Counted from the stretch's first letter, positions 54,095 to 59,553 are shown. The stretch: DNA of 64,000 nt from Candidatus Heimdallarchaeota archaeon (GCA_019058275.1 JAHLVW010000050.1:1-64000); one strand, 5' to 3'. Numbers and translations: made by a program. Notes: a model not told the origin generated them from the sequence alone.

Positions 54095-54727
54095 ATGAAT
54101 AGGTCAGTCAAGATGAAAAAAGGTGTTAAAATTACCCTAATAGTACTTAGTTCAATTTTAATAGTAACAGGAATTATAATTCCAACACTACCTTTTATGA
54201 TGAAATGGGATCCAGCTTATGGCACTCCTGTTCTTGAGTTTCCTTTTGAAAATCCTGATGATATTATTTGGCTAAGAGGTTATAATCTCATAGAGGAAGA
54301 ATCTGATGGAGGGCATCATATAGGCATCGATCTTGAGATTGAAAATGCTTCAACAGTGATTTCCCCTTGTACTGGAACAGTCGGATTGATTAGCTCATCA
54401 ATAAACACAAACAAAGGACATATCATGATTAGTATAAATATTAGAATAAATCTTGTATGGTCAATTATGCTTGTTTTCGAACCATATTCAAATTCCACTG
54501 AATTTCACGAAACTCAATTATCCAATATCTATGTCAAATCTGGACAAAGAGTTGAAGTGGGGGATGAAATTGGCATTCTTCTCAACGGTGGCGAATTTCC
54601 ACACATACATTTCACTGTAAGAAAATATTTCAAAGATGTTTGTCCATTTGACTATTCTTCAGATGAATCGAAGGCAGCGTTTCTTGAGATAGCAGAACGG
54701 ACCAATAGTACAATTTGCTATCCTTAA
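54095..54727 (+). CDS. Membrane-anchored M23-family Zn metallopeptidase
   Basis: N-terminal TM helix, HIGID (HxxxD), VKSGQRVEVGDEIG, PHIHF (HxH). Confidence 0.8.
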   Translation: MNRSVKMKKGVKITLIVLSSILIVTGIIIPTLPFMMKWDPAYGTPVLEFPFENPDDIIWLRGYNLIEEESDGGHHIGIDLEIENASTVISPCTGTVGLISSSINTNKGHIMISINIRINLVWSIMLVFEPYSNSTEFHETQLSNIYVKSGQRVEVGDEIGILLNGGEFPHIHFTVRKYFKDVCPFDYSSDESKAAFLEIAERTNSTICYP

Positions 54728-54813
54728 ATTCGTAACTTTATAAATTACAATGATAAAGTTATGAATTAGAATAGCTATAATTTTACTATAAGTATTTCAT
54801 GAGTTGATGTCCT

Positions 54814-55542
54814 TTGTGTGGAAGATTTGCTAGGTTTTCACCAGCCCATGTTTTTAGAATGCTCTTTCAATTAGATGAATTTGCTGATCTACCTCCACAG
54901 TATAACATTGCTCCCGGTCAAGATATTTACGCTGTGAGAGGAATTATCATGAGAGATGAACAAGCAAGAAGCGCTTCTACAGGAAGTTTCCAAAAGGAGG
55001 TTGCCCCTTTAAGATGGGGATTGATTCCCTTCTGGTCAAAAGAACCTAAGAGTGGTCCAATTAACGCTAGATCTGAAACGGTTACTGAAAAACCGACCTT
55101 TAAGGCATCATTTAAACAACGTCGTTGCTTAATTCCAGCTGATGGTTTCTATGAATGGCAGAAAAAGAGCGAAGGACCCAAGCAACCCTTTTTCATTCAT
55201 ATGAAAGACAAAAAACCCTTTGCTTTAGCAGGCATCTGGGATATTTGGAAAAATCTCGATGGAGACAAAATTGAATCTTGTTCTATTTTAACAACTGAGC
55301 CAAATGAAGTTGTTAAACCAATTCATAAACGCATGCCCGTTATTATCGAACCCAAGAAATTTGATACTTGGTTAGATACCTCTAAACAGAACTTAGACGA
55401 AGCATTAGCTATGCTTAAACCATATGATGCAAAGGCAATGGAAGCACATACAGTCAATCTTTATGTTAATAGCCCAAGTAACAAAGGAGAGAAATGCATC
55501 GAAGAGTTCCATGAGAAATACAAACAGCAGAAATTATTCTGA
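54814..55542 (+). CDS. SOS response-associated peptidase (SRAP/YedK/HMCES), abasic-site DNA-crosslinking protein
   Basis: MCGRF with Cys2, YNIAP, WGLIP, INARSET, RRCLIPADGFYEW, IHKRMPVI. Confidence 0.95.
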   Translation: MCGRFARFSPAHVFRMLFQLDEFADLPPQYNIAPGQDIYAVRGIIMRDEQARSASTGSFQKEVAPLRWGLIPFWSKEPKSGPINARSETVTEKPTFKASFKQRRCLIPADGFYEWQKKSEGPKQPFFIHMKDKKPFALAGIWDIWKNLDGDKIESCSILTTEPNEVVKPIHKRMPVIIEPKKFDTWLDTSKQNLDEALAMLKPYDAKAMEAHTVNLYVNSPSNKGEKCIEEFHEKYKQQKLF

Positions 55543-55748
55543 ACAGCTGATTTTTCGAAAAATTTTTCCACGGAATTAAAGCATTCCATGCATTTCTGTC
55601 GACAAAAATACTTGCAGTTACCCCTCTCACTTTGAGTCTTTTATTTATTAGAAAATGGACTGTATATTCTTCGAAATTGAACTGAGGATTGTGTTAACAC
55701 CACTTGAATCTGGAGAAAGGAGCAATTTAACCGGAGACCACGGAGACT

Positions 55749-58673
55749 GTGAACCAAAAACAAGAGGTTAGGTTCTTACTGACTGACCTTGATTACAAGA
55801 TACCAGAAGAAGAGGGTCAGCTGCCTGTGATTATACTATATGGGAAAACAAAAGATGCTCAAGTTCTTGTAAAGGTTCGAGGTTTTATACCCTATCTCTA
55901 TATGAAGAAGAATAAAGATATTGAGTTTGTCATACAAAATGACCCACTAATCAGCCGTTGGCAGAAAGGAATGGAAGAAGTCACTCTAAGACGATACTTC
56001 TGGGCTGGTGAAAGATTGAAACTCATCAAGTTGTATGGAGTAAACCCTCGAGAGATTAATTCCATTGGAAGAGAATTAGAGAAGCTGGGTCTCGAAACGT
56101 TTGAAACTGATATTCCTTATCTTAAACGATTTTTAATTGATAATAATATCAAATGCTTGAATGTGATAGCAGTAAAGGCCTCTAAAGTTGAACGAAGGGA
56201 GAAAGAACTTTATCTCGAAGCAAATTTCGAAGATATCTACACGGTATCAGACTCAGAAATTACTACTCCTGTATTGTTCTACCCACTAAAGGTTATGGCT
56301 ATCAATGTAAAGATTGCTCGAGATAATGAAACTGTTCAAGAATTATTACGGAAGAAGAATAGGCCAATCATTGCTATTAGTGCTATTTGGGGCACAAGCG
56401 CTAAACCAGAAAACGGTAAATTGTTTTTACTACAAGAAAATTCAGAAGAGGGCGAAAAAAGGGTCATAATGGAGTTCATTAGCTTTCTTCAAGAGGTTCA
56501 ACCAGATATCTTATGTACCTTTCAGGGAGACAGCTTTGATTTACCATATCTTTACCATCAGATGAATGTCTTGGGAATTCCTTCTTTCTTGTTATCATTA
56601 TTTAGGGACGAACCAAGCTACTTCTCCAGACAGTTATTATCTTATCGAATGAAAGGAAGAATGTCTTTCGACCTTGCTTTGAGAACATGGGGTATTCATC
56701 CAGCTTCTGGCAAAAAAGGGTTGTACGATGTTTCAGAAGAGGTTCTCGGTAGAGGGAAATTTGGGATCAAGCAAGACAACAAATATGATTTCATCTCACA
56801 TTCAACTGGACTTGGAGAAGCAAATGCAGACATAGCAGTTTGGAGCCTCTGGAAGAGAGGGATATTTCACGGGGAAAAAGAAAGCTTAAGTTTACTAGCA
56901 AAACAATGTTTTTACGACTGCAAACTCATTTTTGATCTTTATTGGAAACTTGGGATGACTGGTTGGATTGAAACATTGCGAGTAACAGGTTTTCCAACTG
57001 CAGAAAGCAATAGCTGCACAGAACGTTTGAACGGAGAATTTGAACTGATGCGCTACATGCGCAGAAAGGGGATTTTGATACCAAATCGTCCAGATCCTAA
57101 ACAAGTCGAAAAGAATAGAATAATTCGTGAAATGCATCCCCATGAAGGAGGAACAGTTCTATATCCAAAAGGATCTCTTCACACAGGAGTTCTGATTGCT
57201 GATTTCAGATCAATGTATCCGAGTGTTATGATTGCTGAAAATATCGGAGGGGAAACCCTTAAGCAGTGGATAGAAGCGAGTGACTATGGCGATCCAAAGA
57301 AGCTGTTTGATAAGCAATCACGATCGTGTCTATCAATTATGGAAGAAACATTGATTAGTAAAAGAATCCACAAGAAGGATGAAATAAAACGACTAACGAA
57401 GCTGCTAGAAGAAACAAGCAATCATGATGAAAAAAGAAAAATCCAAGATACAATTGGAATTCTCGAGAGAGAGCAAAACTCAATGAAAATAGTAGCGAAT
57501 TCCATGTACGGAGCTCATTTTTACATTCGCAGTCGCTTCTATACTCAGACATTGGCGTCGGCTATTAGTGATAGCGCTAGAACATACCTTTTGGGCATCG
57601 AAGAGAGCCTTGAAGGTGTTTCCAAGAGAATCACCCCTTGTGAGTTGATTTATGGAGATACTGACTCTACTTTTATCAAAATCCTAGATGAATCTATTTT
57701 CAATGAGATTTACGCTGAAACCAGTCTTGAGAAAAAAGAACGGCTCATAGGCAAGCTAATGCGCACTGTTAATTCGATTATTAAAGAGCTCAATAGCAAA
57801 CTTCCAAATCCTCTCGAGTTAAAGTTTGAAGACATCGTTTATCGAGTTATCTTTAAACCAGATAGAAAGAAAGCCTACAGCTATGTCAGCCTTCTTACTG
57901 ATGATTTCAAAGTCAAGGGGTTTGAAGCTGTTCGTTCTGATTGGTCCCCTCTTGCAAGAATCGCTCAAAGAAAAGTGTTGGACATTTTACTTCGGCATCC
58001 AAAAAACTCTCGAGATGGTGAGAGTGAGTTTCAAACTGCACGACAATTTTTGAGGGCACTTGGTGTAAAAGTGCTTCAAATGTCCACAGAAGAATTGCTT
58101 CCTAAAGTGGTAATTCTCTCACCTATTCGTCGCCCACCTAAAGATTACAAAGCAAAAGCACCTGCAGTCCAAGCTTTTGTCGATTTCGCCCGACGGGAGC
58201 AGCTACAAGCAGAGAAGGAATGGATGGACTACGACAAGTTCCCATGGGTAATCATTGCTGGAGAAGGACTTGTTTATGATCGAACTAGGCATCCAAAATA
58301 CGTAGAGGACATCGACCGAGAACACTATGTTACCGAAATGCTTCGCTGTTGTGAAGATCTGAGGGTAAAAGTTTCTTTGAAAGAGGTCAAAGGAGCGCTT
58401 CCGGTTGGCAGATTAGATCACTTCTTTGAAAATGCTCAAGATTTAAGAGCTGAAGAAGATGACAAACTGACAATTATTGTAGATGAGGATCAGCTCATGT
58501 TAGAAAAAGAAGAGTCAGTTATCATTGAGATCATTAAACCAGTTCAAAAAGGTGAATTGGAATGGAAAAACAAAAGTAAAGGTATACGAAGGAACGTCAA
58601 AAGACAGCGAGCTGCTGGTCAAGCAGCTTTAACGTTATATGCTAACTCTCCTGATGATCAGGTTGAAGAATAA
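55749..58673 (+). CDS. polB: Family B DNA polymerase with intact polymerase motifs and a degenerate 3'-5' exonuclease
   Basis: DFRSMYPS, KIVANSMYG, YGDTDS, KGFEAVRSDW; ExoI reads MAINVK rather than FDIE and ExoIII reads QCFYD rather than YCxxD. Confidence 0.9.
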   Translation: MNQKQEVRFLLTDLDYKIPEEEGQLPVIILYGKTKDAQVLVKVRGFIPYLYMKKNKDIEFVIQNDPLISRWQKGMEEVTLRRYFWAGERLKLIKLYGVNPREINSIGRELEKLGLETFETDIPYLKRFLIDNNIKCLNVIAVKASKVERREKELYLEANFEDIYTVSDSEITTPVLFYPLKVMAINVKIARDNETVQELLRKKNRPIIAISAIWGTSAKPENGKLFLLQENSEEGEKRVIMEFISFLQEVQPDILCTFQGDSFDLPYLYHQMNVLGIPSFLLSLFRDEPSYFSRQLLSYRMKGRMSFDLALRTWGIHPASGKKGLYDVSEEVLGRGKFGIKQDNKYDFISHSTGLGEANADIAVWSLWKRGIFHGEKESLSLLAKQCFYDCKLIFDLYWKLGMTGWIETLRVTGFPTAESNSCTERLNGEFELMRYMRRKGILIPNRPDPKQVEKNRIIREMHPHEGGTVLYPKGSLHTGVLIADFRSMYPSVMIAENIGGETLKQWIEASDYGDPKKLFDKQSRSCLSIMEETLISKRIHKKDEIKRLTKLLEETSNHDEKRKIQDTIGILEREQNSMKIVANSMYGAHFYIRSRFYTQTLASAISDSARTYLLGIEESLEGVSKRITPCELIYGDTDSTFIKILDESIFNEIYAETSLEKKERLIGKLMRTVNSIIKELNSKLPNPLELKFEDIVYRVIFKPDRKKAYSYVSLLTDDFKVKGFEAVRSDWSPLARIAQRKVLDILLRHPKNSRDGESEFQTARQFLRALGVKVLQMSTEELLPKVVILSPIRRPPKDYKAKAPAVQAFVDFARREQLQAEKEWMDYDKFPWVIIAGEGLVYDRTRHPKYVEDIDREHYVTEMLRCCEDLRVKVSLKEVKGALPVGRLDHFFENAQDLRAEEDDKLTIIVDEDQLMLEKEESVIIEIIKPVQKGELEWKNKSKGIRRNVKRQRAAGQAALTLYANSPDDQVEE

Positions 58674-59553
58674 CTTCTTTTATCTTTGGTCCTTCGCCTG
58701 TTAACTCTTTTATGAATTCCCTAGTTAATTCTACTACGGGAGTATCATGTGCTGCTTTACTGCTTCCTAAATCAACAAATGTACAATTTAGCAAAGTATT
58801 TGCTACTCTTAAAGCAAAATCAGCTTCATGGACTTTATCTAAGGATGCTCCAACTAGAATGAGACGTTGATTAATCTTTGGTAAAAGATCCCAACTATTA
58901 TATTTGGCCATATCAAATATGACTTCTCGCAATTTTCTTGGGTTGGCTTCTCCAATGGATCGCATATATGCTTCTGATTGTTCTGGCTCTCTCTTTCTAT
59001 CTACCCAAATATATCCAAGTAAAAATAGCAATAAAGGTTTCACCATTCGGATAAAGAATATTGGTGTTATCTTAAACATAAAAATTAGCCATCTTGGATA
59101 ATGAAATTCTACTCCTGGGCCAACAAGTACAGATCCCAATGGAGTAATTGTTTGTGTAGCTAAATTTTCTAAAATTTGGGTTCCGCCTAAAGAGCTTGCA
59201 ACACAAACATATTTTGTTTTGTCTAACCCAAGAGCTTTTTCTACATCGGAGAGATCTTCACTAATACGTTTTATTGTTACCTCAGCTTTTTTTACTAATT
59301 TACTTGATGTTTTTTCTCGGCTTTCAATATAGTATACTTTGTAATTTTCGTTTAGTTCTTCTACAACCTTCTCCCATCGTGGAAACACTGTAACCATTCC
59401 AGGTATGAAGTAAATAGCAATATCTTCTTTGGGTTGTTTAACTTTATCAAAAATAAGCACATATAGTTCACTACCATCAGAAACTTTCACAAATTGCTCC
59501 TTTGCACTTCGTTCATATTCAGATTTTGTTTCCTTTGCTTTCTTTCGACCCAT
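58642..59553 (-). CDS. Alpha/beta hydrolase
   Basis: YFIPGM oxyanion segment, ASSLGG nucleophile elbow, LDKVH Asp, C-terminal AAHD His. Confidence 0.8.
   Translation of the reverse strand: MGRKKAKETKSEYERSAKEQFVKVSDGSELYVLIFDKVKQPKEDIAIYFIPGMVTVFPRWEKVVEELNENYKVYYIESREKTSSKLVKKAEVTIKRISEDLSDVEKALGLDKTKYVCVASSLGGTQILENLATQTITPLGSVLVGPGVEFHYPRWLIFMFKITPIFFIRMVKPLLLFLLGYIWVDRKREPEQSEAYMRSIGEANPRKLREVIFDMAKYNSWDLLPKINQRLILVGASLDKVHEADFALRVANTLLNCTFVDLGSSKAAHDTPVVELTREFIKELTGEGPKIKEVILQPDHQES

Follow-up and report, generated by a model that had tools for sequence, protein, structure and literature searches.

The stretch examined here, the first 64,000 nt of a contig of Candidatus Heimdallarchaeota archaeon (GCA_019058275.1 JAHLVW010000050.1:1-64000; hereafter the window), belongs to a 4.1-Mb metagenome-assembled genome (MAG) of the Heimdall group of Asgard archaea that is 93% complete. 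On its plus strand the window carries two co-oriented open reading frames (ORFs) separated by a gap of 206 nt, a SRAP/YedK/HMCES-family gene (54814-55542, 242 aa) and, downstream of it, the gene of a family-B DNA polymerase (PolB; 55749-58673, 974 aa) whose polymerase site is intact and whose exonuclease is predicted to be dead. This enzyme is a paralog of the B3-like PolB with canonical exonuclease motifs (exo+) found in the same archaeal family, and it will be referred to as the exo-dead PolB. An earlier note on this DNA, made from the sequence alone, had described a SRAP gene with Cys2 that precedes a PolB of 974 aa in the same orientation, at a distance of 206 nt, and the ORFs, the Pfam match and the TTG start of the SRAP gene bear this description out.

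The SRAP product matches Pfam PF02586 at full length (2.1e-71; residues 1-221 against positions 1-214 of the 214 in the profile), and its matches in the PDB are 2F20 (8.6e-31), HMCES (2e-27) and YedK (~1e-19). Because an in-frame TGA occurs three codons upstream (54805-54807), the TTG at 54814 (TTG-TGT, 54814-54819) is the only possible start, and therefore the product begins M-C-G-R-F, with cysteine at position 2; at all 8 orthologous loci of the alignment, too, the Cys codon directly follows TTG or ATG. Besides Cys2, the motifs of Asn84, Glu115 and His171 are present, and the blocks NARSE (84-88), GFYEW (111-115) and HKRMP (171-175) align to the corresponding blocks of 2F20 and HMCES; these blocks supply the conserved active-site Asn, Glu and His (Asn75, Glu105 and His160 in YedK numbering). 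This gene is the sole SRAP of the genome. Its product ends in KQQKLF, and the C-terminus KQ(Q/T)KLF-COOH (window 55522-55539) is kept in nearly all orthologs and could represent a short clamp- or partner-binding motif.

The exo-dead polymerase: active sites, fold and C-terminal tail

The polymerase matches the Pfam profiles DNA_pol_B (2.5e-43) and DNA_pol_B_exo1 (1.3e-22). Its GTG start is supported by the aligned starts of the orthologs, which have ATG, GTG or TTG at this position, and by a conserved GGAGAC upstream; two such motifs resembling ribosome-binding sites precede the GTG in the window (55733-55747, plus strand), and GGAGAC is conserved in alignment A4.

Residue counts for the clade of the exo-dead PolB were taken from an alignment of 25 or 26 orthologs, depending on the region covered, and compared with 25 members of the exo+ sister clade. 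The ExoI remnant of the window enzyme reads MAINVK (residues 183-188; 56295-56312), with Asp changed to Asn and Glu changed to Lys, and the clade as a whole has lost the Asp in 25/25 sequences and the Glu in 24/25. The ExoII remnant, TFQGDSFDLPYL (residues 257-268; 56517-56552), has Gln instead of Asn, a position replaced in all 25 orthologs, and retains the Asp, as do all 25; similarly, the ExoIII remnant QCFYD (residues 386-390; 56904-56918) has Gln instead of Tyr and retains its Asp, the Tyr being replaced in 24 of 26 orthologs and the Asp kept in 25 of 26. The exo+ sister clade keeps all twelve positions counted, the ExoI Asp and Glu included, in 25/25 members. Since the whole ortholog clade has the exonuclease substitutions in common and none of the 25 sister-clade members has them, they are neither chance nor sequencing error. 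B-family enzymes that have lost the ExoI Asp and Glu have no exonuclease activity, which is the basis of the standard exo-minus mutants, for example D141A/E143A. The window PolB, in which only the Asp residues of ExoII and ExoIII persist from the exonuclease site (ExoI DxE, ExoII Nx2-3(F/Y)D and ExoIII Yx3D), is predicted to be exonuclease dead. The position of the ExoI Glu (window 56301-56312) is occupied by Lys in 22 of 25 orthologs while the Asp residues of ExoII and ExoIII stay, and this Lys may fill the former metal site and stabilize the dead domain.

The polymerase site is preserved in all 26 orthologs: motif A, DFRSMYPS (residues 485-492; 57201-57224), retains the Asp and the steric-gate Tyr; motif B, KIVANSMYG (residues 580-588; 57486-57512), retains the Lys and the Asn; and motif C, YGDTDS (residues 635-640; 57651-57668), retains both catalytic Asp. 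Every motif that the earlier note had quoted is present in the enzyme, which has motifs A, B and C intact and is without both carboxylates of ExoI, the Asn of ExoII and the Tyr of ExoIII. These data also bear on the idea that the protein is catalytically inert and acts as a structural or regulatory scaffold in the manner of the C-terminal half of Pol epsilon, in favor of which there are the known inactivated PolB modules (PMC7544198) and the dead exonuclease site of this enzyme. We regard this idea as highly improbable, given that every polymerase catalytic residue examined is invariant (26/26) over ~50% divergence and that palm and fingers are the most conserved part of the enzyme, with a mean identity of 74%. 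Moreover, in the six genomes that hold both copies, the ratios of divergence per domain between the exo-dead and exo+ copies ranged from 0.95 to 1.03, the exonuclease domain included, and from this equal divergence of both paralogs it follows that the exo-dead PolB gene is not decaying and that ordinary purifying selection acts on it.

An AlphaFold2 model of the window PolB (mean predicted local distance difference test, pLDDT, 84.7; predicted template modeling score 0.83) has a complete PolB fold with N-terminal, exonuclease, palm, fingers and thumb domains. The top Foldseek matches of this model were the Thermococcales PolBs 9N, Tgo and KOD (E 1.6e-42; target-normalized template modeling score, TM, 0.78-0.81), followed, for the same predicted model, by Pol delta and Pol alpha. 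A sequence search of the PDB returned the same relatives, with Thermococcales PolB at 8.5e-40, Pol alpha at 4e-17 and Pol delta at 8e-15. An insertion at residues 341-362 was considered as a defining feature of the enzyme and discarded, being present in part of the clade only and modeled with low pLDDT.

The last 88 residues (887-974) are predicted to be disordered (pLDDT <50) and include a conserved, clade-wide module (58530-58643, plus strand; alignment A3) composed of IxPxxxGELxW, a basic patch and the PIP-like sequence GQAALTLYA, that is, a sequence resembling the PCNA-interacting peptide (PIP) box. Compared with the canonical Qxx[LIM]xx[FY][FY], the tail motif QAALTLYA has the Q, the L and one aromatic residue and is missing the second aromatic, and the pattern GQxxLxx[FY] is conserved across the exo-dead clade. 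Docking of the tail alignment on the family-wide PCNA of the genome scored 0.51 compared with 0.00 for the best of 3 controls, which lends weak support to clamp binding. In the calibration, 58 of the 80 solved complexes pass the mark, as do 2 of the 110 mismatched pairs, and scores of 0.60 or under include only 7 of those 80 solved complexes and both passing mismatches. The docking runs agree in at least 72% of contacts, with a partner pLDDT of at least 38. The pass may reflect memory or likeness, as PCNA-PIP complexes are well represented among solved structures.

The genome also encodes a second PCNA homolog (G000:C95:4407-5207; L071:1417-2223), which is 54% identical to the family-wide PCNA (G000:C69; L070:1489-2235) and has a 20-residue N-terminal extension; it was not seen in any other genome, and the extra copy that G076 holds is more distant. 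It was considered as a dedicated clamp for the exo-dead PolB and rejected, as it occurs in this genome and possibly one relative and is not family-wide.

Origin of the polymerase and its relation to known families

Searches of a large protein database recovered 25 orthologs of the window PolB at 50% identity or more, a next tier of ~25 exo+ paralogs at ~45% identity, often in the same MAGs as the orthologs, and a third tier of single-copy PolBs of other Heimdallarchaeia at 32-37% identity. In a maximum likelihood tree (LG+C20, with Shimodaira-Hasegawa-like approximate likelihood ratio test support) that covered these sequences and included neither a B2 reference nor labeled B1-B10 references, the exo-dead clade (support 100) and the exo+ clade (99) are reciprocally monophyletic sisters joined at 100, and the pair is nested within the single-copy PolBs of the class. 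The stem of the exo-dead clade is longer than that of the exo+ clade (0.45 vs. 0.17). Among 83 species genomes of the class, the second PolB copy is found only in one of the seven families (f1), in both of its genera, the sole exception being a 5.4-kb contig binned with a genome of another family. The phylogeny, a check that the earlier note had proposed, places the enzyme as a family-specific paralog, sister to the exo+ PolB and nested in the class-wide PolB. The exo-dead PolB arose by duplication of the B3-like PolB of the lineage or by acquisition of a close xenolog. A place in group B3 is suggested by its nearest solved relatives by sequence and fold, the Thermococcales PolBs, which are classed as B3 (PMC7544198), and the B1 structure 1S5J is absent among the 60 sequence matches shown. 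Expansion of PolB copy number has been reported in many archaeal lineages (PMC12680538).

A second, independent exo-dead PolB lineage was observed in Heimdall-type metagenome contigs (P0068, L059:5624-8236; P0067, L060:3925-6543), where it has a long stem in the tree, is without the ExoI DxE and the ExoII FD and keeps the polymerase motifs.

Three PolB genes are present in the genome. The copy on C11 is PolB1, matching the Sulfolobus B1 structure 1S5J at 1.5e-224, while the copy on C94 (P0030, 926 aa) is the exo+ paralog, which is 45-48% identical to the window PolB and whose ExoI, ExoII and ExoIII motifs are canonical, as is its C-terminal PIP box, KQTKISKFF. PolD (DP2) was also found, so that separate proofreading replicases (PolD, PolB1 and the exo+ paralog) do exist in this genome, as the earlier note had asked to be confirmed. 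Because PolD, PolB1, the exo+ paralog and a Y-family polymerase (PolY) are all present, the exo-dead PolB is a fifth, lineage-specific polymerase and no replacement for a missing translesion enzyme.

The possibility that the enzyme is, by descent, a divergent PolB2 (Dpo2) or a stem member of Pol zeta was also considered, since its dead exonuclease and SRAP neighbor recall the PolB2 operons (PMC11791011) and distant, word-limited matches to fungal Pol zeta were obtained at E ~1e-7. PolB2, a damage-inducible translesion enzyme of Sulfolobus, resembles the exo-dead PolB in being a non-proofreading extra B-family polymerase that accompanies the replicases and has SRAP nearby, and some PolB2s carry clamp-binding motifs (PMC11791011; PMC7544198). 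However, PolB2 has a single Asp in motif C plus a group-specific D(K/R) motif and is missing ExoIII (PMC7544198), whereas the exo-dead PolB has both Asp in YGDTDS and retains the ExoIII region with its Asp; it is also full size (974 aa) and a family-specific duplicate of a B3-like PolB. The partner genes of the iRadA-PPB2-PolB2 operon (PMC11791011) are absent from the locus as well, as no gene matching the RadA/Rad51 family was found among the neighboring genes and SRAP and PolB have no small partner gene between them. These differences in motif C, ExoIII region, partners and phylogeny uphold the view that the enzyme is not a classic PolB2.

As for Pol zeta, the likeness consists in an exonuclease-dead paralog with an intact polymerase site that coexists in one cell with an exo+ sister, as REV3 does with Pol delta. 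Nevertheless, the nearest relative in the tree is the exo+ paralog of the same family, the match to Thermococcales PolB is far stronger than those to Pol alpha and Pol delta, and neither the 60 sequence matches shown nor the 50 matches listed from Foldseek include a Pol zeta chain. The exo-dead PolB is without the N-terminal insertion and the Cys-rich C-terminal domain of REV3, its 88-residue tail having no cysteine and hence no CysA/CysB metal-binding domain; no REV7 or other accessory subunits are known for it, and the duplication is confined to one Heimdallarchaeial family. Specific descent from PolB2 or Pol zeta is accordingly extremely improbable, and the label Pol zeta-like of the earlier note, if taken to mean descent, together with the relevance to the origin of Pol zeta that it had suggested, is not supported for a family-confined duplicate nested in Heimdallarchaeial B3-like PolBs. 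From these comparisons we infer that the exo-dead PolB is a functional analog of PolB2/Dpo2 and Pol zeta that was reached independently and is a member of neither.

The Thermococcales PolBs of group B3 (Pfu, KOD, Tgo and 9N) are the nearest solved relatives (E 8.5e-40, TM ~0.8), and the exo-minus and Z1 variants of these enzymes gain lesion read-through (PMC4150786). In comparison with them, the exo-dead PolB has ~22-25% identity, a natural loss of the exonuclease, fingers helices that are ~13 residues longer, as they are in the exo+ sister, and a long disordered C-terminal tail with motifs of its own. A longer fingers loop has been suggested as a mark of translesion B-family enzymes (PMC4150786); this criterion proved non-discriminating here, as the helices are ~13 residues longer than those of B3-like outgroups, yet equal to those of the exo+ sister, and the loop in the model has 3 residues. 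The enzyme shares with its Thermococcales relatives a set of alignment-mapped positions (Y16, P48, Y49, P100, I103, I122, P123 and Y124), presumably those of the N-terminal uracil pocket, which are conservatively kept.

Conservation of the SRAP-PolB pair and a possible role in lesion tolerance

SRAP lies directly upstream of the exo-dead PolB and in the same orientation in 8 contiguous genomes of the family, which represent two genera and include PolBs with identities to the window enzyme down to 56%. In a ninth case (G073) the 3' end of SRAP and the conserved spacer element occur at a contig end beside PolB, and in G079 the SRAP contig terminates in the spacer element; the same layout was seen in the G022 contig and in the metagenome contigs P0019 and P0021, the latter with a SRAP-PolB gap of only 38 nt and without the ligase genes. 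Thus, in both genera and in the metagenome contigs, SRAP is the neighbor of PolB wherever the assembly permits the test, and the adjacency noticed in one genome extends well beyond it. Besides, the pair stays together while M23 peptidase, hydrolase and ligase genes are gained or lost around it.

The spacer between the two genes holds several conserved features, all on the plus strand. Directly after the SRAP stop codon there are two T5 tracts (55551-55567), within a T-rich tract conserved in alignment A4; oligo-T terminates archaeal transcription, and these tracts are a possible archaeal terminator. They are followed by a highly conserved intergenic element (55597-55637) with the core TCGACAAAAATACTTGCAG...CTCTCACTTT, whose ~35-40 nt are ~90% identical or more across 9 loci compared with a spacer mean of 58%. 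This element is probably a strongly constrained promoter or operator of PolB. An A/T-rich block downstream of it (55637-55650), at a fixed distance in A4, would be a TATA-like box. The intergenic element is unlike the tRNA promoters of the genome, which read GAAAGnTTTAAAA. A different conserved element, AATAGTACAATTTGCTATCCTTAA (54696-54727; alignment A5), lies ~90 nt 5' of SRAP and overlaps the 3' end of the M23 peptidase gene; it is retained even in G076 and in the G022 contig, both without the M23 gene, and may be a promoter or operator of SRAP. In view of the oligo-T after SRAP, the promoter-like element before PolB and the inversion of PolB in one lineage, the term cassette used in the earlier note, if taken to mean an operon, is not sustained.

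Each of the 8 family genomes carrying the pattern CGAYRAAAATACTTNCRG of the intergenic element has it at 1-3 sites, one of them always before the exo-dead PolB, whereas a reversed control of the pattern gave 0 matches; the copies of the element in G076 and G082 differ from the strict pattern by one or two bases. Four extra sites were observed (G000:C42:16221-16238, G000:C26:4807-4824, G072:C107:14660-14677 and G075:C49:36935-36952). Those on G000:C42 and G072:C107 precede a semi-conserved leader of ~85 nt and then the gene of a small zinc-ribbon protein, while the G000:C26 site shares the leader and has no zinc-ribbon gene directly after it. The CGAYRAAAATACTTNCRG sites may mark a small regulon or a shared special promoter. 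With E values of up to 1 allowed, an Rfam search found no RNA family in the spacer or at two further sites of the motif, and a scan for promoters and terminators of the bacterial type was uninformative, its models not being those of an archaeon.

Both genes also stand out in base composition. The GC content at third codon positions (GC3) is 0.31 for SRAP and 0.34 for PolB, which correspond to the 97.5th and 98.8th percentiles of 2,443 ORFs, and it is not raised in the flanking genes (0.20-0.26) or in the exo+ paralog (0.23). The raised GC3 of the pair is repeated in five other genomes (loci L046, L047, L048, L050 and L009); in G082 it is seen for PolB only. Because the other ORFs with top GC3 values, namely TnpB/IS605, an integrase, an MrfA-like helicase and unknowns, are mostly mobile-element genes, the composition hints at a shared foreign origin of SRAP and PolB rather than at high expression, and likewise hints at a xenolog rather than a duplication in situ. 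High GC3 as a sign of high expression was discarded, since the top-GC3 ORFs are not housekeeping genes.

We propose that the exo-dead PolB works in the same pathway as SRAP, as a polymerase without proofreading that is tethered to PCNA and carries out lesion-tolerant or gap-filling synthesis, a reading that we hold with moderate confidence and would be about equally prepared to see upheld or overturned. In such a pathway, this duplicated or xenologous B3-like PolB, which has lost four exonuclease residues (Asp and Glu of ExoI, Asn of ExoII and Tyr of ExoIII) and kept its polymerase site and fold, would synthesize DNA without proofreading, tethered to PCNA through its non-canonical C-terminal PIP-like motif. 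At abasic sites or mismatched termini it would insert opposite the obstacle or extend past it, free of the futile cycles of insertion and excision that a proofreading PolB goes through. SRAP and PolB would be transcribed separately, the latter from the strongly conserved, probable promoter or operator that precedes it. A B-family polymerase that has no proofreading ceases to idle at lesions. It has been demonstrated that an archaeal PolB reads through abasic sites only once its exonuclease is inactivated (PMC4150786) and that exonuclease mutations alter abasic-site bypass by Pol delta (PMC2685094). In addition, bacterial SRAP genes adjoin UmuCD, ImuAB-DnaE2 and DinB (PMC3765255), and SRAP genes are enriched beside the translesion PolB2 in archaea and bacteria (PMC11791011). 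The bacterial loci (YedK/YoqW) are alike in placing SRAP beside the gene of a specialized or mutagenic polymerase (UmuCD, ImuA-ImuB-DnaE2 or DinB; PMC3765255) and differ in that the partner here is of the B family, not of the Y or C family, the host is an archaeon and no LexA/SOS regulator is evident.

Several observations weigh against this proposal, and most of them would fit a proofreading-free specialized polymerase whose task has no connection with SRAP, for example primer extension in the manner of Pol alpha, excision-repair gap filling, Okazaki-fragment maturation or condition-specific replication, the neighborhood then being an accident of where the duplicate landed. The whole ~20-kb neighborhood is syntenic across the family and the SRAP-PolB pairing arose once, so the cases are not independent, and for these two reasons the conserved adjacency argues only weakly for coupling. 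One metagenomic lineage (P0025 contig) has PolB alone inverted, so that it converges on SRAP. The two genes have different conserved, promoter-like upstream elements and are probably separate transcription units. Among the PolB and PolY genes listed for other families of the class, none was seen beside SRAP, and the PolBs of the second exo-dead Heimdall lineage (P0067 and P0068) have no SRAP neighbor, being arranged head-to-head with a gene of 125 aa, with a NUDIX gene near. A Y-family polymerase is present in the genome, as in nearly all genomes of the class. Furthermore, motifs A, B and C and the fingers length are those of the exo+ sister, and since neither polymerase site nor fingers differ from the accurate paralog, nothing in these parts of the sequence points to low fidelity beyond the loss of proofreading. 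Eukaryotic HMCES reportedly limits translesion synthesis and does not promote it (Mohni et al. 2019).

One genome, G073, has two SRAP copies, which weakens the coupling further: a complete one (G073:C16:1877-2542) in the syntenic ligase-M23 context, followed by unrelated DNA without PolB, and a 3' fragment at the end of C45 (L050:12684-12816) directly upstream of the exo-dead PolB. The two copies may stem from a bin of mixed strains or from a genuine duplication or rearrangement.

For a task without connection to SRAP there is also a precedent in Pol alpha, likewise an exonuclease-dead B-family enzyme (PMC7544198). On the other hand, the pair has outlasted at least four local rearrangements or indels, its atypical GC3 is common to both genes and not to the flanking ones, and SRAP adjoins translesion polymerases in many unrelated lineages (PMC3765255; PMC11791011). 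This alternative is possible and in our judgment falls short of an even chance.

The earlier note had called the logic of the locus undescribed, a claim that requires revision, as SRAP beside the translesion PolB2 has already been published (PMC11791011); the combination of SRAP with an exo-dead B3-like PolB is a convergent variant of that pairing. No description of this paralog or of its SRAP pairing was found in the literature. Exonuclease-dead B-family polymerases for damage tolerance have two separate origins, PolB2 in archaea and bacteria and Pol zeta in eukaryotes. If lesion tolerance together with SRAP is indeed its role, the exo-dead PolB would add a third origin, one that is recent and can be dated cleanly and whose two daughter copies still coexist in the same genomes, with a conserved SRAP neighbor, and duplicating a replicase-type PolB, killing its proofreading and keeping its clamp tether would be a recurrent solution. 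It would also offer a natural matched pair of exo+ and exo-dead enzymes, at 45-48% identity, with which to ask which changes beyond loss of proofreading give lesion tolerance, and could show how abasic-site shielding by SRAP couples to polymerase choice. The case concerns one family, is built on sequence comparison and has no bearing on the ancestry of Pol zeta. A bolder version, which we consider rather unlikely, is that Asgard archaea near the eukaryotic stem independently evolved a split of the delta/zeta type, with an accurate copy and a PCNA-tethered, proofreading-free copy that co-evolved with SRAP for abasic-site tolerance and shares a small CGACAAAAATACTT-marked regulon with the zinc-ribbon gene.

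Neighboring genes and occurrence of the locus

The genes around the pair comprise two AMP-ligase-like genes, an M23 peptidase gene upstream of SRAP, an alpha/beta-hydrolase-like gene and an ABC transporter, and two of the neighboring genes, of 303 and 489 aa, had no Pfam match. The 303-aa gene (window 58642-59553, minus strand) converges on PolB, overlaps its last 32 nt and is found only in some family genomes; based on a GxSxG-type elbow, SSLGG, it was read as a putative alpha/beta-hydrolase.

The locus was detected in 17 DNA sequencing runs, from sediment, cold-seep and subsurface metagenomes, and in no RNA run. G077, a genome in which neither SRAP nor the exo-dead PolB was found, was examined as a signal of co-absence and set aside, as its assembly yielded neither the ligase nor the ABC genes of the flanks and probably lacks the region, which makes the co-absence uninformative.

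The M23 peptidase gene (window 54095-54727) is absent from some family genomes, including G076, whose neighboring genes are 92-96% identical to those of the window. Moreover, the M23 copy of G073 is 91% identical to that of the window and the adjacent genes are 62-70% identical, a pattern that suggests recent gain or exchange of the M23 gene.

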